Shown: positions 4,264 to 61,078, numbered from the stretch's first letter. The stretch is DNA of 64,000 nucleotides from Acidobacteriia bacterium AH_259_A11_L15 (GCA_027717655.1 JALLOH010000005.1:284-64283); one strand, 5' to 3'. Made by a program: numbers and translations. Notes: a model not told the origin generated them from the sequence alone.

Positions 4264-4827
4264 TCATGCTTTGGGGGGAATGTCCGGCAGCACCTTGCCG
4301 GTGCGCCAGGCGTAGTGGATGCCGGAGGCTAGGGTGATCGCCACCGTCAGCCCGATCAGCACGTCCTTGGCCCAGACCACCGCCCCGTGCGGCCACACCC
4401 TGGCCAGGACCACCACACCCACGGTCAGCACCTGGGTCACCGTGCTGATCTTGCCGTAAACGCTGGACGCGAACGGCCGCCACCCGGCCCCGATGATGAT
4501 GGCCAAGGCCACGGCTAGGATGAGCACGTCCCGCCCCAGCACCAGGACGCTCACCGTCCAGGGAACGTCGCCCTGGACTGCCAGGATGACGAAGGCGGTC
4601 GAAAGCAGCAACTTGTCGGTGATGGGGTCGAGATAGGCGCCCAGGGGCGTGCGCTGCTTCAGCGCCCGCGCCAGCAGCCCGTCCAAGGCGTCGCTCAAGC
4701 CCGCGGCCAGCAGCACCGCCAATCCCCAGCCATAGCGCTGGTTAAGAACCGCAATGACGAAGAAAGGAATCAGCGCCAGCCGCACCAGCGTGAGCTGGTT
4801 GGCCAGGGTGAAGAACTGCCGGCTCAT
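4264..4827 (-). CDS. pgsA: CDP-alcohol phosphatidyltransferase (PgsA-like)
   Basis: 187-aa multi-TM protein. DALDGLLARALKQRTPLGAYLDPITDKLL matches D-x2-DG-x2-AR-x8-G-x3-D-x3-D. Confidence 0.8.
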   Translation of the reverse strand: MSRQFFTLANQLTLVRLALIPFFVIAVLNQRYGWGLAVLLAAGLSDALDGLLARALKQRTPLGAYLDPITDKLLLSTAFVILAVQGDVPWTVSVLVLGRDVLILAVALAIIIGAGWRPFASSVYGKISTVTQVLTVGVVVLARVWPHGAVVWAKDVLIGLTVAITLASGIHYAWRTGKVLPDIPPKA

Positions 4828-6026: not shown

Positions 6027-6728
6027 CTAGGCCGCGCGCTGGCGCGTGGTGCGCCGCTCGATGCGCTTCTCGTAGTCTTTCCCCTGAAAAATGGCATCCA
6101 CGAAGATGCCCGGGGTGTGGACGAAATCCGGGTCGAGCTCCCCCACGTCCACCAGCTCCTCGACTTCGGCGATCACAGTGTCGGCCGCGGTGGCCATCAC
6201 CGGATTAAAGTTCCGCGCCGTCTTTCGGTAGATAAGATTTCCCCACCGGTCCCCCTTCCAGGCCTTGATGAAAGCATACTGAGCCCGCAGCGGCTTCTCC
6301 AGCACGTACATCTTGCCGCCGATCTCCCGCGTCTCCTTGCCTTCGCCCACCGGGGTGCCGTAGCCGGTGGGGGTGAAGAACCCGCCGAGGCCCGCCCCGG
6401 CCGCCCGCATGCGCTCGGCCAGCGTGCCCTGGGGATTCAACTCCACTTCCAGCTCCCCGCTCAGCACCTGCTGCTCGAACAGCTTGTTCTCCCCCACGTA
6501 AGTGGCGATCATCTTTTTCACTTGCTTGGTCTGCAGCAGCAGCCCGATCCCGAAGTCATCCACCCCGGCGTTGTTCGATATGACCGTCAGGTTCTTGACG
6601 CCTTTCCGCCGCACCGCCGCGATCAGGTTCTCCGGGATGCCGCACAGCCCGAAGCCGCCCATCATGATGGTGGCCCCGTCCTGAATCGCCTTGATGGCTT
6701 CCTCCGCGTTCGCCACCCGCTTGTTCAT
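6027..6728 (-). CDS. scoA: 3-oxoacid CoA-transferase subunit A
   Basis: [44 protein letters not shown]. Confidence 0.9.
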
Positions 6729-6741
6729 CGCTCTACTCCAT

Positions 6742-7179
6742 TCAGCTCGCTAATCCCTTACCACCGAGCTCCACCAGCATGGCATTCATCGCCTGCAAAT
6801 ACTTCTCCACCAAATCCTTTTGCTCCTCAATCTTCATCGGACGTTCGAGAACCTTAAAGTCGCCCATCCCTTCAATGAGGTCTGTGATCTTTGCACGTGC
6901 TTCCTTCCGAAAGAGCGAAGCCACAAAGACGAGCTCAAGTCGAAGAGGCGCTGCACCTCTAGTATTTGGCGGCTCCGAGGTCACAGCATCCAACCACTCC
7001 AAGAAAAGACCCTGCAGTCTCTCATAGGCCTTCAGCTGTAGCTCGTACCTCTTACTCCTAAGTTGCCACCTTGCTGTCAACCAAGTGGCGAGAATGCCCC
7101 CGAGCACGGCAATCACTATGGGGCTATTCAGCACGTGCCATATCTGCGACCACAAGTTCGGCCAGTCAACGTTTTGCAT
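6742..7179 (-). CDS. Hypothetical membrane-anchored protein (lower-GC patch)
   Basis: 145 aa with one N-terminal TM segment ([14 protein letters not shown]). Overlaps the tyrA stop by 14 nt. Visibly AT-richer than its neighbours. Confidence 0.5.
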
Positions 7180-8092
7180 TTTCTCTCAGCTGGCGCGTTA
7201 ATTCTTGGCCTTTCTCAAACTCGTCTGCCAGCTCCTTCGAGCGCAGCCGGGTGCGCAGCCGCTGCAGGCGCGCCTCCAGCCGCTCCAGCGCCCGCTCCAG
7301 GTTTTCGCTGTTGGTCAAGCAGATGTCCCGCCAGAGGTCGTAAGGGCTCGCGGCCAGCCGGGTCATATCGCGGAAGCCGGTCCCGGCCAGGCTGAGCGGC
7401 AGGCCGTCCTCGTCGGTCTCGTCCCAGACCGCGCTGGCCAGCGCGGTCGAAAGCAACTGCGGCGCCTGCGACACCAAGGCCACCGCCCAGTCGTGCGTCT
7501 CCGCATCCAGCTCCACCGGCTCCGCCCCCAGCCGCCGCACCCAATCCAAGAACTCCTCCGCCGCCTCTGTCATCCCGAGTCCCGACCCCGAACCTTCGGG
7601 GCGGGACGAGGAATCTGCTTTCTCCTTTGCTTCCTCTGCTTCCTCTGCCTCCTTGACCACAACGTACTTGGAACCCATAAAAAGATCGGCGTCCGCATTC
7701 TCGATCCCCGACACTTCTTTCCCCGCCATCGGGTGGCCGCCCAAAAAGGTTAGCGTCTCCGGCAAAACCTGTTTCGCCATCCGGCAAACTCGCACCTTGG
7801 TGCTGCCCGCGTCGGTGACCAGCGCCCCGGCTTTGGCGTGCCGGCCCACTTGCGGCAGCAAGTCCAGGATGACTACCACCGGCGCGGCCAGATAAATCAG
7901 CTCGGCGCCCTCCACCGCCGTCGCACCATCCTCCGTTCCCCGGTCAATGGCTCCCCGCTCTTGCGCCTTTTGCAGGACATCCTCTTTGTCCCAACCGATG
8001 ATCTTACCGGCGTAGCCACGCTTCTTCAGCCCCAGCGCGAACGACCCCCCGATCAACCCACAACCCAAGACGGCAATTTTCTGGAAAGCCAT
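7166..8092 (-). CDS. tyrA: Prephenate dehydrogenase
   Basis: IAVLGCGLIGGSFALGL Rossmann motif, GGHPMAG, THDWAVALVSQAPQLL. Carries an acidic/Gly-Ser insertion at aa 147-173. Confidence 0.9.
   Translation of the reverse strand: MAFQKIAVLGCGLIGGSFALGLKKRGYAGKIIGWDKEDVLQKAQERGAIDRGTEDGATAVEGAELIYLAAPVVVILDLLPQVGRHAKAGALVTDAGSTKVRVCRMAKQVLPETLTFLGGHPMAGKEVSGIENADADLFMGSKYVVVKEAEEAEEAKEKADSSSRPEGSGSGLGMTEAAEEFLDWVRRLGAEPVELDAETHDWAVALVSQAPQLLSTALASAVWDETDEDGLPLSLAGTGFRDMTRLAASPYDLWRDICLTNSENLERALERLEARLQRLRTRLRSKELADEFEKGQELTRQLRENAKR
7574..7654 (-). repeat. In-frame repeat-derived insertion within tyrA
   Basis: Encodes KEAEEAEEAKEKADSSSRPEGSGSGLG. The DNA contains ccccgaaccttcgggg (7586-7601), identical to 9238-9253, followed by ggacgaggaatctg (compare gcgacgaagaatctc at about 9190) and the CT-rich motif shared with 5950-5990. 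Confidence 0.6.
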
Positions 8093-8095
8093 CAG

Positions 8096-9115
8096 CTAGC
8101 CAATGGTGCGTTCAACCGCCGGGGCGATGATGCGGAGCTGCTGCATCAGCCGGGCGAATTGCTCCGGGTAGAGCGACTGCGCCCCGTCGCTCAGCGCCTT
8201 CTCCGGCTCGTTGTGCACTTCAATCAGCAGGCCGTCGGCGCCCGCCGCCACCGCGGCCCGGGCCATGGGCGGCACTTTGTCCCGCCGCCCCGTCCCCTGC
8301 GAGGGGTCCACCACCACCGGCAGGTGGGAAAGTTTCTTCACCACCGGGATGGCCGCCAGGTCGAGCGTGTTGCGGGTGTAGGTCTCGAAGGTGCGGATGC
8401 CTCGTTCACAGAGAATCACGTTGTAGTTCCCGCCCTGCATCAGGTACTCGGCCGAGAGCAACCACTCCTCGATGGTGGCCGAAAGCCCGCGCTTGAGCAG
8501 GATCGGCTTTTTCGTCTTGCCCAGCTCCTTCAGCAGCACATAGTTCTGCATATTGCGGGCGCCCACCTGGAAGATGTCCACCAGCTCCTGCATCATCTGC
8601 ACCTGAGTATGGTCCACGATTTCGCTCACCACCAGCAGGCTGTTCGCCTCGGCCGCCTCCCGCATCATCTTCAGCCCGTCGGGGCCCAGCCCCTGGAAGC
8701 TGTACGGCGAGGTGCGCGGCTTGAAGGCGCCGCCCCGCAGCACCTTCGCCCCGTGCTCCCGAACCAGCTTGGCGATGGCCTGGATCTGCTCCGGATTTTC
8801 CACTGAGCACGGCCCGGCCATCATAATCACTTCCCGGCCGCCCACCTGCACGCCCCGGCCGACCTCCACCACCGTGCCTTCCGGTCGGAAGCTGCGGCTG
8901 GCCAGCTTGTAAGGGGCGCTGATGCGCACCACTTCGCGCACGCCCTCAAGCAGCTCGATGTCCCGGGTGTCGAAGTCCAGCCGCGCCCCCACCGCCCCCA
9001 GCACCGTGTGCCGGACGCCGGTGGAGCGGTGGACGCCGAACCCCATCCCCACCAGGCGCTCGATGACGTGCTGGATCTGCTCCTCAGTGGCTCCCTCGTG
9101 CATCACCACGACCAT
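8096..9115 (-). CDS. 3-deoxy-7-phosphoheptulonate (DAHP) synthase, type I-beta with an N-terminal ferredoxin-like regulatory domain
   Basis: 339 aa. N-terminal MVVVMHEGATEEQIQHVIERL (ACT/FL-like), then GPCSVEN, LRGGAFKPRTSPYSFQGLG, VDPSQG. Confidence 0.9.
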   Translation of the reverse strand: MVVVMHEGATEEQIQHVIERLVGMGFGVHRSTGVRHTVLGAVGARLDFDTRDIELLEGVREVVRISAPYKLASRSFRPEGTVVEVGRGVQVGGREVIMMAGPCSVENPEQIQAIAKLVREHGAKVLRGGAFKPRTSPYSFQGLGPDGLKMMREAAEANSLLVVSEIVDHTQVQMMQELVDIFQVGARNMQNYVLLKELGKTKKPILLKRGLSATIEEWLLSAEYLMQGGNYNVILCERGIRTFETYTRNTLDLAAIPVVKKLSHLPVVVDPSQGTGRRDKVPPMARAAVAAGADGLLIEVHNEPEKALSDGAQSLYPEQFARLMQQLRIIAPAVERTIG

Positions 9116-50051: not shown

Positions 50052-51026
50052 ATGCGAAAGCTCGAGTGGATATTCCTGGTGCTCGGCCTGGCTCTCTTCA
50101 TCGTCCTGCTCGACCGGGTGGGCTGGGAGGAGATTCTTCGCCGCCTGCTGACTCTCGGCTGGGCCTTCCTCTTGGTCCTGGGCGTCTCCGGCTGCCGCTA
50201 CCTCTGCCGGGCCGCCGCCTGGCGATGCGCGTTCGCCGGCCGCCAGGACACGCCCTCTTTCCGCGACATGTTCCAAATGCGCTTGGCGGGGGAGGCCATC
50301 GCCTACCTGACCGTGGCCGGCCCCCTATTGGGGGAGCCCGCCAAGGCTACCCTGCTCCGCCGACGAATGCCGATGCTGGTCGGCCTGGGGGTCACCCTGA
50401 TCGAAGCCGGCATCTACGGCCTCACCTCCATCTTGGTGATTCTCGTCGGCCTGGTCCTCGGCCTGCTCCGGGTGACGATGGACGAGAAGATGCAGCGTGC
50501 CGGCTGGGTCGGGGCGCTGCTGCTGGCGCTGTTCCTGCTGGCGGTCGCCTGGCTGCTGCGGCGGCGGGTACGCTTCCTCTCGGCCGCGGTGAACTGGCTG
50601 GCTCGCGGGCGCATGGGCCGCTGGCTGGCCCCTCACCGTCCCCGACTGACCGAGCTGGAAGACCACCTGCTGCGCTTCTACGGCGAGCACGCCCGCGACT
50701 TCCGCGCCCTCTTCCTCTGGAACTGCCTAGCGCAGGCCTTCGCCATGTTCGAAATCTATATCATCCTCGGGGCGCTGGGGCTGCGGGCCACCTGGGAAGA
50801 CCTGCTCATCCTGGAAGGAATGAGCAAGGTGTTTAAGACGCTCTTCTTCTTCATTCCCGCCCGCGTCGGCACCGACGAAGCCGGCATGGCCGCGGTCTTC
50901 CAGGTACTGGGCCTGGGCTTCAGCCAGGGCGTCAGCCTGGCCCTGGTCCGCCGCCTGCGGGCGCTGGTCTGGTCAGGCGCCGGCCTGGTCTTTCTCTCCC
51001 GGTACGCCCTGCGGAGAAACCAGTAG
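50052..51026 (+). CDS. LPG_synthase_TM / UPF0104 flippase-like membrane protein
   Basis: About 8 TM segments. MRKLEWIFLVLGLALFIVLL... and a C-terminal ...ARVGTDEAG...ALVRRL typical of the lysyl-PG-synthase TM (flippase-like) family. Confidence 0.6.
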   Translation: MRKLEWIFLVLGLALFIVLLDRVGWEEILRRLLTLGWAFLLVLGVSGCRYLCRAAAWRCAFAGRQDTPSFRDMFQMRLAGEAIAYLTVAGPLLGEPAKATLLRRRMPMLVGLGVTLIEAGIYGLTSILVILVGLVLGLLRVTMDEKMQRAGWVGALLLALFLLAVAWLLRRRVRFLSAAVNWLARGRMGRWLAPHRPRLTELEDHLLRFYGEHARDFRALFLWNCLAQAFAMFEIYIILGALGLRATWEDLLILEGMSKVFKTLFFFIPARVGTDEAGMAAVFQVLGLGFSQGVSLALVRRLRALVWSGAGLVFLSRYALRRNQ

Positions 51027-51132
51027 CTTGGGATTGCTCTCTCACAGGCGCTGTGAGAAACTCGCAGCTACGGCAAGCAGTTGTCCGACAGGTCGGCTGG
51101 TCGCCGGGCAATCCGCTTGAGGGTCAGTTCCT

Positions 51133-52956
51133 ATGTGTGGCATCTGCGGCTTCGCGGGCCTCCGGGATCAAGCGCTGCTCGAGCGTATGACCGCCATCCT
51201 GGCCCACCGCGGGCCCGACAGCGTGGGCTTCTTCTCCTCGCCGCAAGCCAGCCTGGGCTTCCGCCGCCTCAGCCTCATCGACCTCACAACCGGCGACCAG
51301 CCCTTGGCCAATGAGGACGGCTCCGTCCGCCTGGTCCTGAACGGCGAGATCTATAACTACCGCGAACTCCGCGCCGAGCTAGCGCGCCGCCACCGCTTTG
51401 CCACTCACAGCGACGCCGAGGTGGTGGTCCACCTCTATGAGGAAGCGGGCGAAGCCCTGCTGGAACGGCTCCAGGGGATGTTCGCCTTCGCCCTCTGGGA
51501 TGCCAGCCGGAACCGCCTGCTGCTGGCCCGCGACCGCCTGGGCATCAAGCCCCTCTACTACGCCCCCCACCAAGGCGCCCTCTACTTTGCCTCGGAGGCC
51601 AAAGCCATCCTGGCCAATCCCGAGCTCCCTCGCCGCCTCAACCCCCGGGCGGTCACCCGGCTGCTCACCTACCTCTATCTCCCCGGCCCCGAAACGCTGG
51701 TCGAAGGGGTCCACCGTCTCCCGCCCGGCTGCTGGCTGAGCTGGCAGGATGGTCAGACCTGCCTGGGGCGCTACTGGAGCCTCCGGGCCCACGCTCCCCG
51801 GCGCATCTCGGAGGAAGAAGCCATCGCCGAGTTCCGCCGCCTCTTTGAAGACGCGGTGGCCAGCCACCTGGTCAGCGATGTTCCCGTGGGGGCCCTTCTC
51901 TCCGGAGGGCTGGATTCGGCCGGCGTGGTGGCCCTGATGGCCCGGCTGCTCGACCATCCCCCCAAGACCTTCACCGTGGGCTTCGCCGGCACCGCCGACG
52001 AGCGCCCTCTGGCTCGTTCCTTGGCCGAGGAGCTGGGCACCGAACACCATGAGTTCGAGCTCCAGCCGGACCACTTCCTGCGCGACCTCCCCCGCATGGT
52101 CTGGCATTTGGAGGAACCCACCCCGATTTCCTTCCTTCCCCTCTTCTACTTGTCCGAGTTCGCCCGGCACCAGGTCAAGGCCGTGCTGCTGGGCGAAGGA
52201 GCCGACGAGCTCTTTGCTGGCTACCGCCGCCTGTTGCCCTTTTCCCCTACGCTGCGCTTCCTCCCCTCCGGGCTCCAGCGGCGTCTCTATTTGATGAGCC
52301 TCCACTCGTTGGGCGACCGCCACCGGATGAGCGCCAACGGCCAGGCCAGCGACTCCGGGGACCCGCTACATTCGGTTTTCCAGCAGGGCGGCCGCACCGG
52401 CCTGGGCGCTATCCTCAACTTCGAGCAGTCCTACCCGCTGCCGGACTACCAACTCCACCGGGTCGACCGCATGACCATGGCCTGGGGGCTGGAAGCCCGC
52501 GTCCCCTACCTGGACCATCGCCTGGTCGAGTTCGTGAACTCGCTGCCCGACGCCCTCAAGCTCCGCAGCTTCCGGCCAAAGCACCTGCTGCGGCAGGCCC
52601 TGAAAGGTCTGGTGCCCGACGACATCCTGGAGGGGCGGAAACGCGGATTCGGCGCCCCCTTCCGCCTCTGGTACTCGGCCGACTTCCTGGACGCGGCCCG
52701 CACTTACGTGAACGAAGATTCCATGCGCCAGCGGGGATGGATTCGCCCCGGCTTCCTCCGCGAGCTCTACCGCCCCCATACCTGGGGCTGGTTGCAGGGT
52801 CGCCGTGGAAGCCAGCTCTTCTTGCTCCTGGCCCTGGAGCTCTACTGCCGCCTCTTCCTCGACCCGGCAGCCCCCGAATTCCCTACCCTGCCCCCGGGCG
52901 TTCCCGAGTCTCCGGCGCTGGTCGAGCCCCGCCTCCCGGTCAGTTCCCTCGCCTGA
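51133..52956 (+). CDS. Asparagine synthetase B-type glutamine amidotransferase
   Basis: MCGICGF (Ntn Cys2), LNGEIYNY, LSGGLDS (PP-loop). Confidence 0.85.
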   Translation: MCGICGFAGLRDQALLERMTAILAHRGPDSVGFFSSPQASLGFRRLSLIDLTTGDQPLANEDGSVRLVLNGEIYNYRELRAELARRHRFATHSDAEVVVHLYEEAGEALLERLQGMFAFALWDASRNRLLLARDRLGIKPLYYAPHQGALYFASEAKAILANPELPRRLNPRAVTRLLTYLYLPGPETLVEGVHRLPPGCWLSWQDGQTCLGRYWSLRAHAPRRISEEEAIAEFRRLFEDAVASHLVSDVPVGALLSGGLDSAGVVALMARLLDHPPKTFTVGFAGTADERPLARSLAEELGTEHHEFELQPDHFLRDLPRMVWHLEEPTPISFLPLFYLSEFARHQVKAVLLGEGADELFAGYRRLLPFSPTLRFLPSGLQRRLYLMSLHSLGDRHRMSANGQASDSGDPLHSVFQQGGRTGLGAILNFEQSYPLPDYQLHRVDRMTMAWGLEARVPYLDHRLVEFVNSLPDALKLRSFRPKHLLRQALKGLVPDDILEGRKRGFGAPFRLWYSADFLDAARTYVNEDSMRQRGWIRPGFLRELYRPHTWGWLQGRRGSQLFLLLALELYCRLFLDPAAPEFPTLPPGVPESPALVEPRLPVSSLA

Positions 52957-52991
52957 AAGCAGCTTCCTGCTCGCCCCGCGGCCTGACGGTG

Positions 52992-52997
52992 TATAAT
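52992..52997 (+). promoter_or_regulatory. TATAAT box 12 nt upstream of the TagF-like gene start
   Basis: ggtgTATAATcttcgtctagagATG. Possible internal promoter with a very short leader. Confidence 0.25.
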
Positions 52998-53009
52998 CTT
53001 CGTCTAGAG

Positions 53010-54095
53010 ATGCCGGCCAACGGAGACAAGCGAATCATCTTCCACGCGGCCCTGCCGCACCACTTCGTCTTCTTCCAGTCCGTCTACGACCGCCTGGCCG
53101 CCGACGCGCGCCTGCACTGGTTCTGGTCGTCAAACTTCCTCGGCTGGCAGTTGAAGAAGCACCTCTTCGATCTCTTTCCCGTCCAGGGAAAAAAGATCAG
53201 CTCCCTGGCCGCCCCGGTGCGCCGCTACGACCTGCTGCTCTCGCCCGTCTACCTGAAGTTCGACGTGGCCCCGCGCGCCCGCCAGCGCGTGCAGATCTTC
53301 CACGGCGTGGCCATCACCAACTGCTTCCTCAAACCGCAAATCCACGACTACACCCGCTTCTTCATGATCGGCCCCTATATGGTGAAGCGGTTCGTGCAGA
53401 AGGGCCTGCTGCGCCAGGACGACCCCCGCATTGAGATGATCGGCATGCCCAAGCTCGACCCGCTGATGAACGGCCGGATTGATACCGAGAAAATCAAGCG
53501 GGAGCTGGAGCTTGACCCCTCCCTCCCCATCGTCCTCTACGCCCCCAGCGGCTCCTACTCGTCCATCGAGGGCGAAGGCCTGGAGGTCATCGAGCGCCTG
53601 CGCGCGATGCCCATCAACCTCCTGGTCAAGCTCCACGACAAGAGCCGCGACTTCCGGCGCACCCCCGACTGGCTGCGCAAGGTGAAGAACCTCGAGGGGG
53701 GGCGGCGGCGCGTCCACCTCATCGAGGGCTTCGACATCGTGCCCTACCTGGCCCTCGCCGATGTTCTCATTTCCGATTTCAGCTCCGCCGCCAACGAGTT
53801 CCTGCTGCGCGACCGCCCCATCCTTTTCCTGGATACCCCTGAAAAATATGAGATCAACAAGGAGCGCTGGGACACCGAGGTCTGGGGCCAGCGGATCGGC
53901 GTCACGGTGAAAACGGCTGACGAACTGGTGCGCGCCCTGGAAGACGCCCTGGCCGACCCCGGCCAGCTCAGCGACCTCCGCCGGCAGGCCGCCGCCGACA
54001 TCTTCTACCGGCCCGGCACCGCCACCGACCGGGCCGTGGCCAAGATTTATGAGCTGCTGGAGCTGGCGCCCGCGACCTCCGCCGCCGCCGACTGA
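53010..54095 (+). CDS. CDP-glycerol glycerophosphotransferase (TagB/TagF) family protein
   Basis: 361 aa. IFHG..., VLYAPS, LVKLHD, ADVLISDFSSAANEFLLRDRPILF follows the TagF-family C-terminal motif order. Confidence 0.65.
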   Translation: MPANGDKRIIFHAALPHHFVFFQSVYDRLAADARLHWFWSSNFLGWQLKKHLFDLFPVQGKKISSLAAPVRRYDLLLSPVYLKFDVAPRARQRVQIFHGVAITNCFLKPQIHDYTRFFMIGPYMVKRFVQKGLLRQDDPRIEMIGMPKLDPLMNGRIDTEKIKRELELDPSLPIVLYAPSGSYSSIEGEGLEVIERLRAMPINLLVKLHDKSRDFRRTPDWLRKVKNLEGGRRRVHLIEGFDIVPYLALADVLISDFSSAANEFLLRDRPILFLDTPEKYEINKERWDTEVWGQRIGVTVKTADELVRALEDALADPGQLSDLRRQAAADIFYRPGTATDRAVAKIYELLELAPATSAAAD

Positions 54096-54120
54096 ATCCT
54101 TGGACGCATGAAAATCATCT

Positions 54121-55509
54121 TTGACTGAAGGGATTCCTCCGTTGCCCGTAAGCAAAGGCATACTGCTGAACCTGAAAGACGCGGCCGCGCCGCGGGCGCC
54201 GCGGCTGGCCGGCCTCCCGCTGTTGCTGCGCGCCGTGCTCACCGCCCAGCGCGCGGGCCTTGAGGAGCTGTTCATCGTCGGCGGCCACCACCCCGGGGGC
54301 TTGCTCACCCGCGACCCCCGGGGCAAGCTCCAGTGGCACTGGTTCCCGGTGGAGGAAGAGCCCGACGAGCTGGCCGCCTTGCGCGCCGTCGGCCACCGCT
54401 TGAACGAGCCTTTCGTCTTGCTGTTCGCCGACTCCATCATCGGCCCCGGGGCCCTCGAGGCCCTCCTGCACGCCGAACTCAACGCCAAGCTCGCCCGCAT
54501 CGCCATCCACGCCGGCACCGCCGAGCAACTGGACGGAGCCAGCCCCGCCAGCGGCGGGGTCAGCCTCTACCTCTGCAGCGCGCAGCTATTGAAGCTGGCG
54601 GAAGAAGCGCCGAAAGAATTGAAGCGGGTGGATGAATTCATCCAATGGCTGGAGGGAGGAAAAGCAGATCCCTCGCTGACGCCCGGGATGACAACGGGAG
54701 GCACGGCGCGGGTGGACAGGGTGGAAGTCGAAGGCAAGCTCTGGCCGCGCACCTCCGACAAGCAGGCGCTGCGGCGGATCGAGCGCGAGTTCGCCCACTT
54801 CAACCTCAAGCCCTCCGACGGCATCTTCGCCCGGTTCAATAAGCTGGTGGTGGCCGAATCGCTCATCCGCCTGGCAGTGCGCACCCCGGCCACGCCCAAC
54901 TTCATCACCGCTCTGGGGTTGTTGTTCGCGCTCTTCTCCGGCTGGGCCTTCGCCGAGGGCAGCTACGCTTGGAGCCTCGCCGGCGCCTTCCTGGCCTACG
55001 TTTCCGCCATCATGGACCACATCGACGGCATGGTGGCCCGGCTGAAGTTCCTGGAGTCGGAGTTCGGGGTGTGGTTCGAGTCGGCGGTCGACTACTTGAG
55101 CTACTTCTGCATCTTCGTGGGCATGGCCATCGGGCTCTACCGGGAGACCGGCTTCGCCCCTCATCTGGTGGTGGGGGGCCTGTTTTTGTTCGGGTGGGTG
55201 CTGAGCTTCGTCCTCCAGAGCCGCCAGCGTATGCTCATCAGCGGCGACAACCCCACCGACTATCCCAACCGCATCCACACCGCTCTAGAGAAGCACAACC
55301 AGAACCTCTTGCACTGGTTCACCCGCCGGGTCTACTTCCTGGTTCGCCGCGCCGTGCTCCCCTACTTCATTCTATTGTTCTGCCTGCTCGACCTGCGCGT
55401 GCTCCTGCTCGGCTTTGTGACCCTGGGCGCCAACATGGTCTGGTTGATGATCTTCTACAACAACCGCCTCTTCCGCCAGCGCGAGCACCGCCCCGCCGAA
55501 GCCGACTAG
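54121..55509 (+). CDS. Fusion: degenerate nucleotidyltransferase-like N-domain plus CDP-alcohol phosphatidyltransferase membrane domain (IPCT/DIPPS-like architecture)
   Basis: The C-terminal half has MDHIDGMVARLKFLESEFGVWFESAVD (D-x2-DG-x2-AR-x8-G-x3-E-x3-D) and about 6 TM segments. The N-terminal roughly 200 aa is NTP_transferase-like (LFADSII...) but lacks the GxGxR loop (GILLNLKD). Confidence 0.65.
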   Translation: MTEGIPPLPVSKGILLNLKDAAAPRAPRLAGLPLLLRAVLTAQRAGLEELFIVGGHHPGGLLTRDPRGKLQWHWFPVEEEPDELAALRAVGHRLNEPFVLLFADSIIGPGALEALLHAELNAKLARIAIHAGTAEQLDGASPASGGVSLYLCSAQLLKLAEEAPKELKRVDEFIQWLEGGKADPSLTPGMTTGGTARVDRVEVEGKLWPRTSDKQALRRIEREFAHFNLKPSDGIFARFNKLVVAESLIRLAVRTPATPNFITALGLLFALFSGWAFAEGSYAWSLAGAFLAYVSAIMDHIDGMVARLKFLESEFGVWFESAVDYLSYFCIFVGMAIGLYRETGFAPHLVVGGLFLFGWVLSFVLQSRQRMLISGDNPTDYPNRIHTALEKHNQNLLHWFTRRVYFLVRRAVLPYFILLFCLLDLRVLLLGFVTLGANMVWLMIFYNNRLFRQREHRPAEAD

Positions 55510-55625
55510 TGTCGCAAGTCGTTAGGTTGCGTTCTCTGGGTTAGTTTGGTAAGAATTGCGCTAAGTTTTCGGGAGCTTGAGGCTCAAAATTGCCAGACCC
55601 GTCAGAGGTCAAAGGAGGTGGCCAA

Positions 55626-57023
55626 TTGGCCAAACCTCGATTCGAATTTCGTTGGCAGAACTTCCGTAGCTTTTACGACACCGGCTGGATTGGCGTAAAG
55701 CCAATAACTGTCTTGCTAGGGGCTAATAATACAGGTAAGACCAGTCTCATGCTTCCGCTTCTAGTCCTTAGACAAACATTAGACTCTGCAGACCCGAACG
55801 TAGCACTCAAGACTACGGGTCCTATGGTGTCAATCGGCACATATCGCGACATGGTTTACCGCCACCGGGTGAATGAGCCGGTTTCATTTCATTTGCGGTT
55901 TGCCTATCCGCGCAAAGAACAAGACAAGGGAAAGAAGAGGCTGAAAAGAGTGGGTCCATATCCACCGGGCATACTGACACTGCAATTCGTTGCTGGTGAG
56001 ACAGAAAGCGAAGTCAAGTTGGGGCGGTATCAAATTCGTGACGTTTACAACAGGCCCTATGTAACCCGTAAACTTCGCCCTAACAACAAATATTCGCTGG
56101 AATTCCCTCAACAACTTCCTCAAAGGTTTCTTGAATCTGTAAACAGAGGTAAACCTGAACATTTTTTCTTCTCTGCTTCAAGCGTTATTAACGAATTCCT
56201 CAGGAAACAAATCGGGAAAACGGGGATCAAAGAACGGAAGAAGAAGCGCGGCGTGATATTGCAAAAACTAAACATTGCGGGACCAATTACACACTATTGG
56301 ATGGTTTCCGCTTCTGCGGAAGGCGATGTATCGCGCCTAATTTCGCATTTGAGCTACGTTGGCCCCTTGCGGGAACGGCCTAAGCGTTCATACGAGAGCT
56401 CTGAAGAAACTCCAGAGTCGGTGGGGGTGCGTGGAGAAAATGCTCCACTAATTCTTTTCCACAGAAAAGAATCGGATTTTCAAAAACGAATTAGAGATTG
56501 GTTACGAGAATTTGAACTAGCTGACAAAGTCGAATGTAATGAGCTGGGTCGCGGCATCTTCACCGTAGAAATACTAGGCAGAAAAAAAGGGTGGCGAGTC
56601 GATTTCGTAGATACTGGCTTCGGCCTTTCACAACTCTTACCACTTATCGTTGAAGGATTCCATTCCAAGGCAGGAGACATGATATTCGTTGAACAACCGG
56701 AAATCCATCTAAATCCAAGGCTACAATGCAAGCTCGCCAATTTATTTGCGACGCTCGCGAGGGAAGAGCGGTCGATAATCGTGGAAACACACAGTGAGCA
56801 TTTCATTTTGAGATTGCGAAGCCTTATCGCGGAAAAGAAGATTCGAGCCGACGACGTAGCTTTGTATTTTGTTGAGAAGAGGAGGGGAGAGTCTTCTGTT
56901 CGCGCCATACGAATACAAGAGGACGGCCATATTGAGCCAGATGAGTGGCCCCAAGGGTTCTTTGAAGATTCTATCGGTGAGGCACTTCGGCTTGCGAGGG
57001 CGCTCGATCAATCTGCAAGTTAG
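55626..57023 (+). CDS. ABC/AAA_21-type ATPase (DUF3696-like C-terminus), low-GC island
   Basis: Walker A LLGANNTGKTS, signature-like GFGLSQLLP, Walker B DMIFVEQPEIHLNP, H-loop ETHSEH, C-terminal DEWPQGFFEDS. TTG at 55626 is preceded by AAAGGAGGTG (the ORF also opens at a TTG at 55590). Confidence 0.8.
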   Translation: MAKPRFEFRWQNFRSFYDTGWIGVKPITVLLGANNTGKTSLMLPLLVLRQTLDSADPNVALKTTGPMVSIGTYRDMVYRHRVNEPVSFHLRFAYPRKEQDKGKKRLKRVGPYPPGILTLQFVAGETESEVKLGRYQIRDVYNRPYVTRKLRPNNKYSLEFPQQLPQRFLESVNRGKPEHFFFSASSVINEFLRKQIGKTGIKERKKKRGVILQKLNIAGPITHYWMVSASAEGDVSRLISHLSYVGPLRERPKRSYESSEETPESVGVRGENAPLILFHRKESDFQKRIRDWLREFELADKVECNELGRGIFTVEILGRKKGWRVDFVDTGFGLSQLLPLIVEGFHSKAGDMIFVEQPEIHLNPRLQCKLANLFATLAREERSIIVETHSEHFILRLRSLIAEKKIRADDVALYFVEKRRGESSVRAIRIQEDGHIEPDEWPQGFFEDSIGEALRLARALDQSAS

Positions 57024-57026
57024 GTC

Positions 57027-57506
57027 GTGGTCTTAATGCTTTTGGATATTGTTATCGATACTAATGTCTTCCAGCATTCCTACGACCCTCGCCAACAATC
57101 TCGTTTTTCCGCGAGGCAATTTCTAGAGCGATTACTTCGAAGTCAGACAGAGCTGTGTGTAGACGAAGGTTTTACTCTAGATCGCGCTACAAATCGTAGC
57201 ATCATAGGACACGAATATTTTGAAAACATCCGCTTTGTGAATCCAGCGTTCCAGATAATTGTTGCTCTTGGGCGAAGAGGTCGCATTCGGCAGTTCAGCA
57301 GAAAAGTCGATAGAGGGTTCGGCCGAAGGGTGGATCGGTGGGTGGCAAAGACTGATAGAGTGTTTATCAAGGTTACATACAAATCCCGGTCCCGAACATT
57401 CGTTTCGCACGATTTCGTGGATTTCCCGGATAGGAAACGAGAACAATTTCGAGCCGACTTTGGAATTTCAATTGTTGTTTCTGACTGGGCTGAACGTGCG
57501 CTCTAA
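57027..57506 (+). CDS. PIN-like nuclease domain protein (partner of the ATPase)
   Basis: Starts 3 nt after the ATPase stop. LLDIVIDTNVFQHS (PIN first acidic motif), CVDEG, SHDFVDF (distal acidic motif). 159 aa, low GC. Confidence 0.6.
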   Translation: MVLMLLDIVIDTNVFQHSYDPRQQSRFSARQFLERLLRSQTELCVDEGFTLDRATNRSIIGHEYFENIRFVNPAFQIIVALGRRGRIRQFSRKVDRGFGRRVDRWVAKTDRVFIKVTYKSRSRTFVSHDFVDFPDRKREQFRADFGISIVVSDWAERAL

Positions 57507-57522
57507 GCTCTTGCATTAGGCA

Positions 57523-57624
57523 CCCTTCGAGTTCGCTCAGGGTGGACAAACCCTTGCCCTACCCAGCCTTCGGCTGGAGTGGCTCTCCCATGCGTTCGAA
57601 TGCATTCAGAACGCAGAACGCATG
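57523..57624. repeat. REP copy plus palindromes on the right flank of the low-GC island
   Basis: cccttcgagttcgctcaggg (57523-42). Inverted repeat CATGCGTTC (57589-97) / GAACGCATG (57616-24). A further GGCGGC-tttag-GCCGCC lies near 57672. Confidence 0.55.
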
Positions 57625-57766
57625 CGGGGTGGAGGGGGAGTAGCGGGGCGCCCCTGCCGTGATTGTAGAGGCGGCTTTAGGCCGCCAACCTGGCGGGGTG
57701 AACCCGCCGCTACACGAAAGAATGCGCTATACTGCGGGGTTGCCGAGAGAGCAGGGCGCCGAGTGA

Positions 57767-59443
57767 ATGAGCAAGGCCGCGAAACTCCGGGAATTGTTGG
57801 GGAGGACGCAGCCCACGCTGCTGGTGGGGGCGCACAACGGGCTGACGGCGAAGCTGGCCGAAGAGGCCGGCTTTGACGGGGTCTGGGCCAGCGGCTTCGA
57901 GATCAACGCCGCCCGCGCCCTGCCCGACGCCTCCATCCTCTCCATGTCCGAGCACCTGGCGGTCTGCGGCGAAATCAACGACGCCACCGCGCTGCCCGTG
58001 GTGGCCGACTGCGACAACGGCTTCGGCAACGCCATCAACGTCATGCGCCTGGTGCGCGAGTGCGAGAAGGCCGGCCTGGCCGGCATCTCCATCGAGGACA
58101 ACGTCTTCCCCAAGCGCTGCTCGTTCTACGCCTCGGTGAAGCGCGAGCTGGAATCCATCGAAGAGTTCAGCGGCAAGATTCGCGCCGCCAAGAACACCCA
58201 ACGCTCGCCGGACTTCGTGGTCATCGCCCGCACCGAGGCCTTCATTGCCGGCTGGGGGCTGGAAGAAGCGCTCAAGCGCGCCCGCGCCTACGCCGACGCC
58301 GGCGCCGACCTCCTTCTGGTCCACTCAAAGAAAAACACCCCGGAGGAAATCCAGGCCTTCGCCCGGCGCTGGGACCGCCCTGTGCCCCTGGCCGCCGTCC
58401 CCACCATCTACAAGCAGACCACCGCGCAGGAACTCTACGAGCTGGGCTGCCGGCTGGTCATCTTCGCCAACCAGGGCATCCGCGCCTCGGTGAAAGCGGT
58501 CCGCGAAGCCCTGACCGAGCTCCGGGAAAAGCAGTTCGCCGCCGCCGTCGACCCCCGCATCGCCCCGCTGGAGGAAATCTACCGGCTCGTGGGCGTCTCT
58601 GAACTCCGTGACCAGGAAGCCCAGTTCCTCCCCGCGCCGGAGAAGACCACCGCCGTCATCGTCGCTGCCGGGGTGGGCTTCGAGCGCGAGCTGATGCCGC
58701 TCATCAAGGACCGTCCCAAGGCAATGTGGGAGGTGGGCGGCAAGACGATTCTCGAGCGGCAGGTCGAGCGCCTCCGCGCCCACGCCATCAAGGAGATCGT
58801 CGTCGTCCGCGGCTACAAGAAGGAAGCCTTCCCGGCGCTCGACACCGTCCGCTACGTCGACAACGACCGCTACGCCCAGACCCACAACCTGGCTTCGCTG
58901 TTCTGCGCCGAGCCGGCGCTGGAGGGCCGCGTGCTCGTCCTCTACGGCGACATCCTCTTCGACTCCAGCATCCTCGACCGCCTGCTGCGCGCCCAAGCCG
59001 ACGTCGCCCTGGTGGTCGACCACGCCTGGCAGGAGAGCTACCAGCGCGGCCAGCTCCACCCGGTCAGCCACCCCGAGCTGGTGCAAACGCAGAACTCGCC
59101 CCTCTACAAGAACCGCTTCCTCCCCGCCGCCGACGGCAACCGCGTCACCCGCATCGGGCGGACCATCGAACCCGCCCAGGCCCAGGCGGAGTTCATCGGC
59201 ATGGCGCTGTTTTCCCCGCGCGGCACGAAAATCCTTCGCGACACCTACCACCGCCTGACCAAGGTCGCCGACCAGCTCCCCTTCCACGAAGCCGCCGGCT
59301 TCCAAAAGGCCAGCCTCTCGGACATCCTCCAAGAGCTGCTCGACCAGGGCCTGCCCGTCGCCGCGGTCGATATCTACAAGGGCTGGATGGAAGTCGACAC
59401 CTTCGAAGACTACGTCAAGGTATGCGAGCAGATACAGCTCTGA
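57767..59443 (+). CDS. PEP-mutase-family protein (non-canonical signature) fused to a C-terminal nucleotidyltransferase domain
   Basis: The N-terminal roughly 290 aa is collinear with PepM (GAHNGL, DCDNGFGN, ARTEAFIAGWGLEEALKRARAYADAGADLLLVHSKK), but the signature reads IEDNVFPKRCSF (58094-58126) instead of EDK-x5-NS. The C-terminal half is NTP_transferase-like: VIVAAGVGFE...RPKAM...YGDILFD...WMEVDTFEDY. Confidence 0.8.
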   Translation: MSKAAKLRELLGRTQPTLLVGAHNGLTAKLAEEAGFDGVWASGFEINAARALPDASILSMSEHLAVCGEINDATALPVVADCDNGFGNAINVMRLVRECEKAGLAGISIEDNVFPKRCSFYASVKRELESIEEFSGKIRAAKNTQRSPDFVVIARTEAFIAGWGLEEALKRARAYADAGADLLLVHSKKNTPEEIQAFARRWDRPVPLAAVPTIYKQTTAQELYELGCRLVIFANQGIRASVKAVREALTELREKQFAAAVDPRIAPLEEIYRLVGVSELRDQEAQFLPAPEKTTAVIVAAGVGFERELMPLIKDRPKAMWEVGGKTILERQVERLRAHAIKEIVVVRGYKKEAFPALDTVRYVDNDRYAQTHNLASLFCAEPALEGRVLVLYGDILFDSSILDRLLRAQADVALVVDHAWQESYQRGQLHPVSHPELVQTQNSPLYKNRFLPAADGNRVTRIGRTIEPAQAQAEFIGMALFSPRGTKILRDTYHRLTKVADQLPFHEAAGFQKASLSDILQELLDQGLPVAAVDIYKGWMEVDTFEDYVKVCEQIQL

Positions 59444-59844
59444 CCTCCAGCGTCGGGCTCTACCATCAATTTCGGGAACAGGGCTACGACTTCTTCGTCG
59501 GCGTCCCCTGCTCGGGGCTGTCCGCCTTCATCAACGACCTGCAGGCGGACAAACGGTCGCCCTTCATCCCCGCGCCCCGCGAAGACGTAGCCCTGGCGAT
59601 GGCCGCCGGCGCCGCCATGGGCGGCAAGAAGCCCCTAGTCTATCTGCAAAGCTCCGGCCTCGGTCACCTGGTCAATCCCATCGCCTCCCTGCTCAAGCCC
59701 TACGGCCTTTCCGTGCATTTACTCATCAGCCTGCGGAGGAAACCGTTCGAGCATTTCTTCATGCACAAAATCACCGTGCCGCTGCTCGACCTGCTCGAAT
59801 ACGACGACTACACCATCGTCGAGGAGCCCAAGTGCGACGCCTAG
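59422..59844 (+). CDS. ThDP-dependent (phosphono/sulfo)pyruvate decarboxylase, alpha (PYR-domain) subunit
   Basis: MRADTAL...GYDFFVGVPCSGL...REDVALAMAAGAAMGGKKPLVYLQSSGLG is the Ppd/ComD N-terminal pattern. ATG at 59422 overlaps the upstream gene by 22 nt. Short (140 aa). Confidence 0.65.
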   Translation: MRADTALTSSVGLYHQFREQGYDFFVGVPCSGLSAFINDLQADKRSPFIPAPREDVALAMAAGAAMGGKKPLVYLQSSGLGHLVNPIASLLKPYGLSVHLLISLRRKPFEHFFMHKITVPLLDLLEYDDYTIVEEPKCDA

Positions 59845-60311
59845 AAGCCATCCGGCAACTGGCGGCCGAGTGGACCGACGAGCTCATCGTCGCCACCACC
59901 GGCATGATCAGCCGCGAGCTCTACGTCGTCCGCGACCGCGCGGAGAACTTCTATATGTGCGGCTCTATGGGCTGCGCCCTCCCCATCGGCCTCGGCCTGT
60001 CCCTGGCCCACCCCGAACGCAAAGTGGTGGTGCTCGACGGCGACGGCGCCGCCCTGATGAGCCTGGGCTCACTGGCCCTGGCCCGCCACTTGCGCCTCCC
60101 CAACCTGGTGCACATCATCCTCGACAACGCTACCTATGCCTCCACGGGGGACCAACCCACCTGCTCCGCCGCGCTCAACTTCGAAGAGGTCGGCTTCCAG
60201 GTGCGCCACCTCCGCGTCGAGCCCGGTAACCAGCCCGACACCCCCCGCATCCCCTACGACCCCCTCGAGATGCGCCGGCGCTTCGAGCGCGCCGTCCGCC
60301 GCTCTGCCTGA
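59832..60311 (+). CDS. ThDP-dependent (phosphono/sulfo)pyruvate decarboxylase, beta (PP-domain) subunit
   Basis: GSMGCALPIGLGL, VLDGDGAALMSLGSL...ILDNATYASTG (GDG-x26-N ThDP motif). Confidence 0.75.
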   Translation: MRRLEAIRQLAAEWTDELIVATTGMISRELYVVRDRAENFYMCGSMGCALPIGLGLSLAHPERKVVVLDGDGAALMSLGSLALARHLRLPNLVHIILDNATYASTGDQPTCSAALNFEEVGFQVRHLRVEPGNQPDTPRIPYDPLEMRRRFERAVRRSA

Positions 60312-61078
60312 TGCCCGCCGACACCCTGGCTGTTCTGCTCGCCGCCGGACCCGGCACCCGCTTGCGGCCGCTCACCCAGGACCGACCCAAGTGCCTGCTG
60401 GAGCTCGCCGGGCGTACGCTGCTCGACTACCAGCTCGCCGCCCTGGCCGCCCACGGCATTGAAGACGTCCTGGTGGTGACTGGTCACTGCGCCGACCAGA
60501 TCGTCTCCCGCTACCCCCGCCGCATCCGCACCCTCCACGACCCCGACTACGCTGCCACCAACAATCTGCACTCGCTTTGGACCGCGCGCCACGAGCTGGC
60601 CGGGCGCGACACCCTTTGTCTGCACACCGATCTGCTCTTCCACCCGGCCATCCTCCGCCCCTGCCTGGAGCACCCGGCGGACGTCTGCGTAGCCCTCGAC
60701 ACTGAGCTGGTCGAAGAAACCATGAAAGCCCGGGTGGAGAACCACCGCGTCGTCGAAATCAGCAAGAACATTCCCCCCGACAAAATGTTCGCCACCTTCC
60801 CCGGCATCGCCCGCTTCTCCCCCCGCGCCTCCGCGTTGCTGCCAGCGGTTCTGGACTCGCTGCTGAAAGAGGAAGTAAATCGCCACGCCTATTTCACCGC
60901 CTGCCTGCCGCCCCTCACCGCCCGCGGCTGCCAAGTGGGCTATTCCTTGACCCGGGCACTCCCTTGGATTGAAATCGATTCCCCGGCCGACTTGGAGCGA
61001 GCCCAAAAGGAAACCCTACCCTCCCTCCTCCCCGTTTTCGCAAAACTCCCCAGCCTCCATTTCGGGGAAAACCGTTAG
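60311..61078 (+). CDS. LicC/PntC-like nucleotidyl(cytidylyl)transferase (second stand-alone copy)
   Basis: AVLLAAGPGTRLRPLTQDRPKCLL, HTDLLF, WIEIDSPADL. TGATG overlap with the decarboxylase beta gene. Confidence 0.75.
   Translation: MPADTLAVLLAAGPGTRLRPLTQDRPKCLLELAGRTLLDYQLAALAAHGIEDVLVVTGHCADQIVSRYPRRIRTLHDPDYAATNNLHSLWTARHELAGRDTLCLHTDLLFHPAILRPCLEHPADVCVALDTELVEETMKARVENHRVVEISKNIPPDKMFATFPGIARFSPRASALLPAVLDSLLKEEVNRHAYFTACLPPLTARGCQVGYSLTRALPWIEIDSPADLERAQKETLPSLLPVFAKLPSLHFGENR

Follow-up and report, generated by a model that had tools for sequence, protein, structure and literature searches.

What is a short AT-rich pair of genes doing in the middle of a GC-rich biosynthetic cluster? 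In this study, we address this question for a 64,000-nucleotide stretch of DNA from Acidobacteriia bacterium AH_259_A11_L15 (GCA_027717655.1, JALLOH010000005.1:284-64283), hereafter the window, in which an earlier note made from the sequence alone had marked positions 55510-57766 as a candidate undescribed defence or toxin module. Our preferred reading, to which we assign a probability of roughly 0.6, is that the segment is a horizontally acquired, two-gene anti-phage cassette of the abortive-infection type, of the same kind as HEC-03 (Hma-embedded candidate 03), a system that combines an ABC ATPase with a PIN-fold protein. The defence-type logic and the parts named in the note have stood, while the word "undescribed" has not, since HEC-03 has already been tested against phage. 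The pair is a new, divergent example of this already known architecture.

The segment at 55508-57722 is foreign, an insertion. The sharp fall in GC that had been remarked on is present, with values of 0.42-0.50 within approximately 55550-57500 against 0.60-0.73 on both flanks, and a mean of 0.47 for the segment compared with 0.66 for the remainder of the 64-kb window. GC at third codon positions (GC3) follows the same pattern, at 0.46 in the ATPase gene and 0.42 in the PIN gene versus 0.82-0.92 in six flanking genes. DNA similarity to a syntenic metagenomic contig (L020) ends at 55507 and restarts at 57723, which fixes the variable segment at 55508-57722, near the limits first proposed. It is about 2.2 kb in size and holds two coupled genes on the plus strand; the insertion point is the 3' end of the gene for a CDP-alcohol phosphatidyltransferase (CDP-OH transferase, 54121-55509). 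Both flanking genes are as the note had described them:

55508-57722, no strand: low-GC inserted or variable segment with the entire module inside (L020 DNA comparison, GC, GC3)
54121-55509, plus strand: left flank, CDP-alcohol phosphatidyltransferase fusion gene (Pfam CDP-OH_P_transf, 7.2e-10)
57723-59443, plus strand: right flank, conserved upstream region of PepM with CTATACTGC, then the PepM fusion gene
57767-59443, plus strand: phosphoenolpyruvate (PEP) mutase/nucleotidyltransferase fusion gene, PepM (Pfam PEP_mutase, 4.5e-58; NTP_transf_3, 8.9e-14)

Comparison with related loci bears directly on the insertion. In L020 and a second metagenomic contig, L021, the cluster recurs with its gene order unchanged at 50-84% amino-acid identity (transmembrane protein, AsnB, glycerophosphotransferase, CDP-OH transferase, PepM, two Ppd open reading frames (ORFs), nucleotidyltransferase), and the ATPase-PIN pair is absent from the syntenic cluster of both. 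The slot between the CDP-OH transferase gene and PepM varies among relatives. In L020/L021 it is occupied by 1580 nt of native GC (7298-8877), including a gene on the minus strand (7546-8376) for a 276-aa membrane protein of coiled-coil type that has a hydrophobic segment at its N-terminus; the window contains no homologue of it.

The closest relative of the pair is found in a Terriglobia metagenome-assembled genome (MAG; locus L004), where the ATPase is 58% and the PIN protein 53% identical and where the pair again directly follows the orthologous CDP-OH transferase gene (61% identical to that of the window). There, the pair is bracketed by a 123-nt direct repeat (4360-4482 and 6533-6655, 97% identical) that consists of the final ~104 nt of the CDP-OH transferase gene together with ~19 nt beyond its stop. 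A tyrosine recombinase gene (6835-8085, minus strand; Phage_integrase, 3.1e-40) lies 180 nt past the right repeat copy. The repeat looks like an att-type duplication, possibly derived from tandem islands. Within the window, we found neither a right-hand repeat copy nor any flanking direct repeat, and tblastn over the 64 kb revealed no integrase, including no counterpart of the L004 recombinase, in agreement with the absence noted before. Either one old insertion or repeated site-specific insertions at the CDP-OH transferase 3' end would fit these loci.

The first gene of the segment encodes an ATPase of the AAA_21/DUF3696 type, as had been proposed, with Pfam matches to AAA_15 (2.4e-18), AAA_21 (2.9e-14) and DUF3696 (3.3e-10). 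Its longest ORF runs from 55590 to 57023 (TTG start, 477 aa). The likely start, as read from the sequence, is the TTG at 55626, which is favoured by homologue alignments that begin nearby and by a Shine-Dalgarno-like AAAGGAGGTG, whose GGAGG core ends 7 nt upstream. The motifs that the note had quoted from the two proteins (GANNTGKTS, FVEQPEIHLNP, ETHSEH, WPQGFFED, IVIDTNVF and SHDFVDF) are all present. Those of the ATPase were aligned across the window protein, ten homologues and the tested HEC-03 ATPase:

55626-57023, plus strand: DUF3696-tailed ABC (OLD/AAA_15-type) ATPase, 465 aa (Pfam, PADLOC, BLASTP)
55611-55620, plus strand: Shine-Dalgarno-like AAAGGAGGTG, read from the sequence, 5 nt upstream of the likely ATPase start
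55719-55745, plus strand: Walker A, GANNTGKTS; the G.N..GK core is invariant in the homologues and HEC-03
56610-56642, plus strand: signature-like DTGFGLSQLLP, with GxG replacing LSGGQ; GFG.SQ..P is invariant in the family and HEC-03
56679-56717, plus strand: variant Walker B, MIFVEQPEIHLNP, with EQ replacing the DE dyad; EQPEIHL.P is invariant in the family and HEC-03
56781-56801, plus strand: H-loop, VETHSEH; E.HSEH is invariant
56841-56990, plus strand: DUF3696 C-terminal tail (WPQGFFED...EALRLA), residues 418-467 (Pfam DUF3696)

A further motif, Y.GP.R...R.Y, is invariant in the same alignment. The tail pattern WP..FF.D...E.L.LA is common to all ten homologues; the HEC-03 sequence compared ends before it. 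Among PADLOC models, the ATPase scores best with HEC-03B (1.6e-59, 200.1 bits), PDC-M55A (1.8e-58, 196.5 bits) and NsnB (1.1e-57, 194.4 bits), the last over residues 21-461. Further matches are distant, comprising AriA (9.4e-22), GajA, AbiLi and Old, and those to AriA, GajA and PtuA are weak and partial. No NCBIfam model was matched over its cut-off. The nearest solved structure by sequence is the OLD-family nuclease 6p74 (E = 7e-4).

One feature of this protein departs from the usual pattern: in every aligned family member, and in HEC-03, Walker B reads EQPE and not the usual DEPE. Exchange of E for Q at this position normally abolishes hydrolysis in ABC ATPases. Taken together, the EQ dyad and the usual effect of this exchange imply that the ATPase may be a binding switch, and the sequence would fit a switch governed by nucleotide better than a fast motor.

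The second gene follows closely. From the ATPase stop, the gap is 3 nt to the longest ORF (57027-57506, GTG start, 159 aa) and 12 nt to the likely start at ATG 57036, which we prefer since homologues open with 'ML.D'; the tight coupling remarked on in the note is present. Its product was predicted to have PIN-like acidic motifs, and the fold model, its VapC-type structural matches and the conserved acidic residues uphold this:

57036-57506, plus strand: single-domain PIN-fold protein, 156 aa (AlphaFold2, Foldseek, Pfam matches of relatives, hhalign)
57057-57065, plus strand: D11-T12-N13, first PIN acidic residue, at the end of predicted strand 1 (residues 7-10)
57162-57167, plus strand: D46-E47, second acidic position, at the end of predicted strand 2 (residues 42-46)
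57354-57356, plus strand: D110, third acidic residue, at the predicted helix start after strand 3; invariant in 134 representatives
57405-57413, plus strand: S127-H128-D129, fourth acidic residue, after predicted strand 4 (residues 124-126)

Ten metagenomic homologues share 37-56% identity with the window protein, and seven of these eleven sequences match Pfam PIN_3, the best at 5.3e-6. A profile search of 1.84 billion cluster representatives recovered 462 relatives with E <= 1e-3, 361 of them with E <= 1e-10; of the best 150, almost all have lengths between 145 and 175 aa, uniform around ~157 aa. In an alignment of 134 representatives (50% clustering), D11, S58, E63 and D110 are invariant, and T12, N13, H17, D46, N56, I60, Y64, R86, F113, S127, H128, D129 and R138 are at least 90% conserved. 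This depth was needed for structure prediction: AlphaFold2 with the 11-sequence alignment gave an unusable model (predicted local distance difference test, pLDDT, 54), and with the 134 sequences a pLDDT of 97.6 and a predicted template-modelling score (pTM) of 0.91. When this model was compared with the PDB by Foldseek, VapC toxins ranked first, led by 7vwo_A (E = 8.5e-4, probability 1.0) and followed by 5x3t_B, 3zvk_C and VapC20 (5wzf_B). Other matches included the PIN proteins 1w8i, 2fe1, 1y82 and 1v8o (archaeal PINs among them), the Cas9 partner PcrIIC1 and a PIN protein of the small-subunit (SSU) processome. The model has the Rossmann-like alpha/beta/alpha fold with parallel sheet seen in solved PIN proteins, and by position along the predicted strands it contains the acidic quartet (D-E-D-D type) of the PIN superfamily. 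From fold model and motif positions, the assignment holds at the level of fold and motif. In sequence the protein is remote from every solved PIN protein; judged by alignment and model, it has retained those acidic residues that a metal-dependent PIN nuclease would be expected to have.

Which nucleic acid such a nuclease would act on is relevant to the function of the pair. Our preferred reading has the PIN protein cleaving RNA, and one alternative is that it acts on DNA, as FEN- or Mut7-C-type enzymes do, so that the module would restrict incoming DNA instead of stopping translation. The relationship of the ATPase to an OLD-family DNA nuclease (6p74, mentioned above) and the DNA nucleases employed by the related ABC ATPase systems Gabija and Septu would be consistent with this. 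Against it, the structural neighbours of the PIN model are VapC RNases and the rRNA-processing SSU-processome PIN, with no FEN-type enzymes among them, and both its size and its topology fit the compact VapC type; we consider a DNA target quite unlikely. Like the window pair, PARIS, Gabija and Septu place a nuclease under the control of an OLD/AAA_15-type ABC ATPase. Their effectors differ, being Toprim/DUF4435 in PARIS, a fused Toprim in Gabija and HNH in Septu as opposed to PIN in the window, and none of the three has a DUF3696 tail or a PIN partner.

The view that an ATPase of this type has no PIN partner in any named system is incorrect: HEC-03 has one, and the NsnB-NsnC pair of Menshen is related. 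HEC-03 consists of an ABC ATPase and a VapC-like PIN protein, reduces phage plating efficiency in Escherichia coli, requires both genes to do so and becomes toxic on induction (Payne et al. 2024 preprint, bioRxiv 10.1101/2024.01.29.577857, Figs S3, S6). The tested system came from Pseudomonas cichorii (Table S2 of the same preprint), where a 'DUF3696 domain-containing protein' of ~461 aa (322707-324092) overlaps a gene for a 157-aa hypothetical protein (324079-324552). The window has the same plan: a DUF3696-tailed ABC ATPase of ~460 aa and, directly downstream on the same strand and tightly coupled, a single-domain PIN protein of ~157 aa. By BLASTP, the two ATPases share 29% identity over residues 20-421 (E = 2e-43), including G.N..GK, Y.GP.R, GFG.SQ, EQPEIHL.P and E.HSEH. 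For the PIN protein, alignment of the 134-sequence profile with the HEC-03 protein by hhalign covered 113 columns (probability 90%, E = 1.6e-6) and placed (D/E)TNV, D(D/E).G, EY, DR.F..VA and the last Asp in register, with D110 aligned to the D of 'SDRKF'. The profile also aligned, with 79% probability, to the PIN protein of another HEC-03 system, carried by an Aeromonas plasmid.

The distance between the two is nevertheless considerable. The ATPases are just 29% and the PIN proteins ~22% identical, the window family has Asp where the tested HEC-03 protein has Glu as its first acidic residue, and the window pair, unlike HEC-03, is not embedded in an Hma system. The window PIN protein does not match the HEC-03 PIN model at E <= 1 (PDLC04147; with PDLC04148, one of the two HEC-03 models of PADLOC-DB v2.0.0), and only 18 of its 134 relatives do (best E = 3.5e-5). 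A bona fide HEC-03 ATPase, from an Aeromonas pAsa9-like plasmid, scores 444.6 bits with HEC-03B against 198.6 with NsnB and 192.7 with PDC-M55A, and its PIN partner matches the HEC-03 PIN model at 3.1e-23; the window ATPase does not favour HEC-03 over the sister models in this manner. The pair thus matches a named system in architecture and remote homology, but not at the PADLOC PIN model. As far as the sequences can tell, it shares the HEC-03 architecture but forms a deep clade of its own, outside the modelled HEC-03 family. It should be kept in mind that the A and B names are swapped between sources: A is the PIN protein and B the ATPase in PADLOC, and the reverse in the preprint text.

The Aeromonas pair (L018; A. 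salmonicida pAsa9-like plasmid NZ_CP038104.1, 43260-45183) lies on a conjugative plasmid, adjoins AbiEii and Hok/Gef genes and has a gene of the RNA ligase family after it. The proximity of such a ligase to a PIN RNase could point to RNA repair or counter-defence.

To place the pair in a wider context, we surveyed its co-occurrence, as the note had advised. The locus search used the 11-sequence PIN alignment. In all, 15 loci with upstream sequence were compared (three metagenomic contigs and genome loci, from at least four phyla). An ATPase homologue lies immediately upstream of the PIN homologue in all 15, with defence and mobile-element contexts among them. Hosts include Terriglobia MAGs, Acidipila, Terriglobus, Polaromonas, Bdellovibrionales and Bacteroidota, as well as other Gamma-, Beta- and unclassified Pseudomonadota. 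When the neighbours in the 15 loci were compared by all-against-all BLAST, no third conserved gene emerged beside the pair. Across loci, the identities of ATPase and PIN protein to the window pair co-vary (r = 0.85), and the GC of the pair is below that of its flanks, by 4-19 points, in the window and in all 12 further loci tested. The pair is a horizontally acquired accessory module, co-inherited across phyla.

Some copies are decayed. Two ORFs stand in place of a single ATPase gene in Polaromonas sp. CF318 (L009, 4556-6008) and in a gammaproteobacterial MAG (L013, 1612-2993), and in a Caldimonas MAG a C-terminal PIN fragment (L017, 6001-6129; residues 108-150) is all that remains. It may be asked whether the window pair, too, is left over from an old insertion and no longer functional, without any role today, an explanation to which these decayed copies, together with the missing integrase and right-hand repeat in the window, would lend some weight. 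Both window ORFs are intact, however, and every family-invariant motif is present, which makes a relic highly improbable.

The neighbourhoods of other copies are informative for a further alternative, that the pair is a toxin-antitoxin or addiction module, in which a VapC-like PIN toxin would be held by the ATPase as a protein antitoxin and loss of the pair would kill the cell, stabilising mobile DNA or the cluster. One copy (L002) lies amid BrnT and ParE toxin-antitoxin genes, and another (L007) is in a conjugative-element context, with a TrwC relaxase, a TrwB coupling protein and a DnaE2-like polymerase nearby; a third (L006) has an LmuB (Lamassu-like) ATPase gene nearby. The first two of these settings are compatible with addiction, as are the proximity of the PIN fold to VapC toxins, the toxicity of HEC-03 upon induction and the fact that Pfam AAA_21 is named after a type IV toxin-antitoxin toxin family. 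With VapBC itself, the window pair shares an effector for which VapC is the closest relative in fold and acidic quartet, a similarity that sequence hidden Markov models do not detect. The upstream partner is different: VapBC has the small DNA-binding antitoxin VapB, whereas the window PIN protein is preceded by a 465-aa ABC ATPase, and we found no small VapB-type antitoxin upstream and no conserved small ORF in the loci. An ABC ATPase of this size with conserved nucleotide-binding motifs exceeds the needs of neutralisation, and phage protection by HEC-03 requires both genes. We therefore regard a toxin-antitoxin function as unlikely; since many toxin-antitoxin modules are also defence systems, it overlaps with the anti-phage explanation that we prefer.

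A second relative with a known composition is Menshen, described by Millman et al. (2022), which comprises NsnA (ParB-DUF262 + ParBDB, encoded upstream of the ATPase), NsnB and NsnC (PMC12065111). The ABC ATPase of the system, NsnB, ends in a DUF3696 tail and has a GxG signature and a Walker B that is non-canonical, and NsnC joins an N-terminal inactive PIN-like (inPIN) domain to a C-terminal nuclease domain. In AlphaFold 3 models, two NsnB DUF3696 tails surround the NsnC inPIN domain in 23 of 24 systems, while catalytic residues are lost in all 35 inPIN families; sporadic domain loss also occurs (PMC12065111, which mentions neither HEC-03 nor Payne). The window ATPase resembles NsnB in its OLD-ABC type, tail, Walker B and signature, and its downstream partner is likewise of a PIN-type fold, the one that two DUF3696 tails are predicted to clamp in Menshen. 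By analogy with the NsnB-NsnC models (PMC12065111), we infer that the DUF3696 tail of the window ATPase would be a docking site for its PIN partner, and these models offer the best available hypothesis for the ATPase-PIN contact. We rejected membership in Menshen: NsnA is absent, the partner is a single 156-aa domain where NsnC has an additional nuclease domain, and the acidic residues that inPIN has lost are intact.

The same comparison allows for a minimal or degenerate Menshen, in which NsnB would be paired with an NsnC truncated to its PIN-like adaptor, without a nuclease of its own, and an NsnA sensor or effector would be located elsewhere or lost. The NsnB model match along almost the whole ATPase, the binding of the DUF3696 tail by N-terminal PIN-like domains of NsnC in models and the fact that Menshen sporadically loses domains (PMC12065111) are in line with such a reduction. 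Yet no ParB-DUF262 gene lies beside the pair in the window, where the upstream gene is the CDP-OH transferase, or in the 15 loci, and a six-frame translation of the 64 kb contains no DGxQR motif. Moreover, D11, D46, D110 and D129 are kept in the 134 representatives and lost in the 35 inPIN families, NsnC models match none of the 134 members, and the uniform ~157-aa length across the best 150 representatives implies that the PIN protein is no truncation. A reduced Menshen is accordingly very unlikely.

PDC-M55, an untested PADLOC candidate, is similar to the window in having a DUF3696 ATPase of comparable length and a downstream partner gene (overlapping in PDC-M55), and differs in that partner, a 362-aa protein matching PDC-M55B as against a PIN protein of ~157 aa. 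An example on a Bacillus paranthracis plasmid (L019; CP041980.1, 200716-203207) has the ATPase, which scores 267 bits against its own model, and the overlapping 362-aa partner without NsnA. With this pair, DUF3696 ATPases have at least three partner types outside Menshen.

How might the HEC-03-type cassette function? Drawing on HEC-03 genetics, Menshen models and VapC biochemistry, we envisage that the ATPase would form ATP-dependent dimers or tetramers, whose paired DUF3696 tails, as in the Menshen models, would keep the PIN protein inactive. Sensing of a phage cue would shift the nucleotide state, by which the PIN protein would be released or activated. Active PIN protein could then cleave RNA (tRNA, rRNA or mRNA) as VapC toxins do, and this cleavage would lead to translation arrest in the infected cell and to abortive infection or growth arrest.

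Several observations temper our confidence in this anti-phage explanation. How the ATPase and the PIN protein touch, what triggers them and which RNA is cut are all drawn from analogy, and with an EQ Walker B, ATP hydrolysis may be slow or absent. The near-equal scores for HEC-03B, PDC-M55A and NsnB make the pair at most a candidate orthologue of HEC-03, and the experiments come from HEC-03, a relative at 29% and ~22% identity. The window PIN protein itself matches no Pfam, PADLOC or NCBIfam model, two profiles of its family (A1 and A2) retrieved no relevant solved structure from PDB sequences, and the template-modelling scores of the Foldseek matches are low (0.45-0.58). Further, tblastn of the PIN protein against phage and plasmid collections gave no match, and the surroundings of the module in the window are biosynthetic and do not form a defence island.

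The clade connects the HEC-03 preprint, with its active PIN effector, and the Menshen analysis (PMC12065111), with its inactive, clamped PIN adaptor, and the two together suggest one shared, testable ATPase-PIN interface. More tentatively, and as a possibility that we would not yet call probable, the pair may represent a widespread branch of immune systems built on DUF3696 ATPases (at least 462 clusters at 50% identity), outside current models and beside HEC-03, PDC-M55 and Menshen, with an intact PIN protein at the position of the inactive Menshen adaptor. The DUF3696-PIN clamp would then be ancestral, the Menshen inPIN domain would derive from an active effector, and the cassette would be an integrase-less mini-island targeting the 3' end of a conserved gene, as suggested by the 123-nt flanking repeat in L004. 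On the practical side, PADLOC v2 would miss this locus because the PIN gene falls below model detection, and a profile made from the 134 family representatives would bring HEC-03-type systems of Acidobacteriota and other soil phyla within reach of detection. An immune cassette can also lie in the middle of a phosphonate biosynthetic cluster, which is relevant to cluster boundary calls.

The host locus (50100-61078) is such a cluster. Beyond the flanks it includes an asparagine synthase, a CDP-glycerol glycerophosphotransferase-family gene, phosphonopyruvate decarboxylase-like ORFs and another nucleotidyltransferase, and its product is probably a phosphonate-decorated lipid or glycan. The cluster also encodes an LPG_synthase_TM-like membrane protein. 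The phosphonopyruvate decarboxylase-like enzyme is present as two ORFs, at about 59443-59841 and 59832-60311. The longest ORF of the glycerophosphotransferase-family gene starts at 52737 and overlaps the end of asnB by 220 nt (52737-52956); its homology starts near 53052, so that the real start is probably downstream of 52737.

The right end of the segment had been described as a cluster of repetitive extragenic palindromic (REP) elements or palindromes at 57523-57700:

57507-57722, no strand: GC-rich non-coding right end with several short hairpins and no demonstrable REP element

The hairpins are there, but the evidence for a REP element is weak or negative. The fold of 57507-57766 has a z-score of -2.05, only 2 standard deviations better than shuffled sequence, this region has no Rfam match, and neither the 64 kb nor any related locus contains a second copy of the right-end sequence. 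A REP or structured-RNA reading of 57507-57766 was rejected on these three grounds. Scans for sigma-70 promoters and terminators performed no better than on shuffled sequence. The last 44 nt (57723-57766), which include CTATACTGC, are conserved with L020 (8878-8918) and, judging from the sequence, probably belong to the upstream region of PepM. Here, CTATACTGC may act as a -10-like element, giving PepM its own promoter downstream of the insert.

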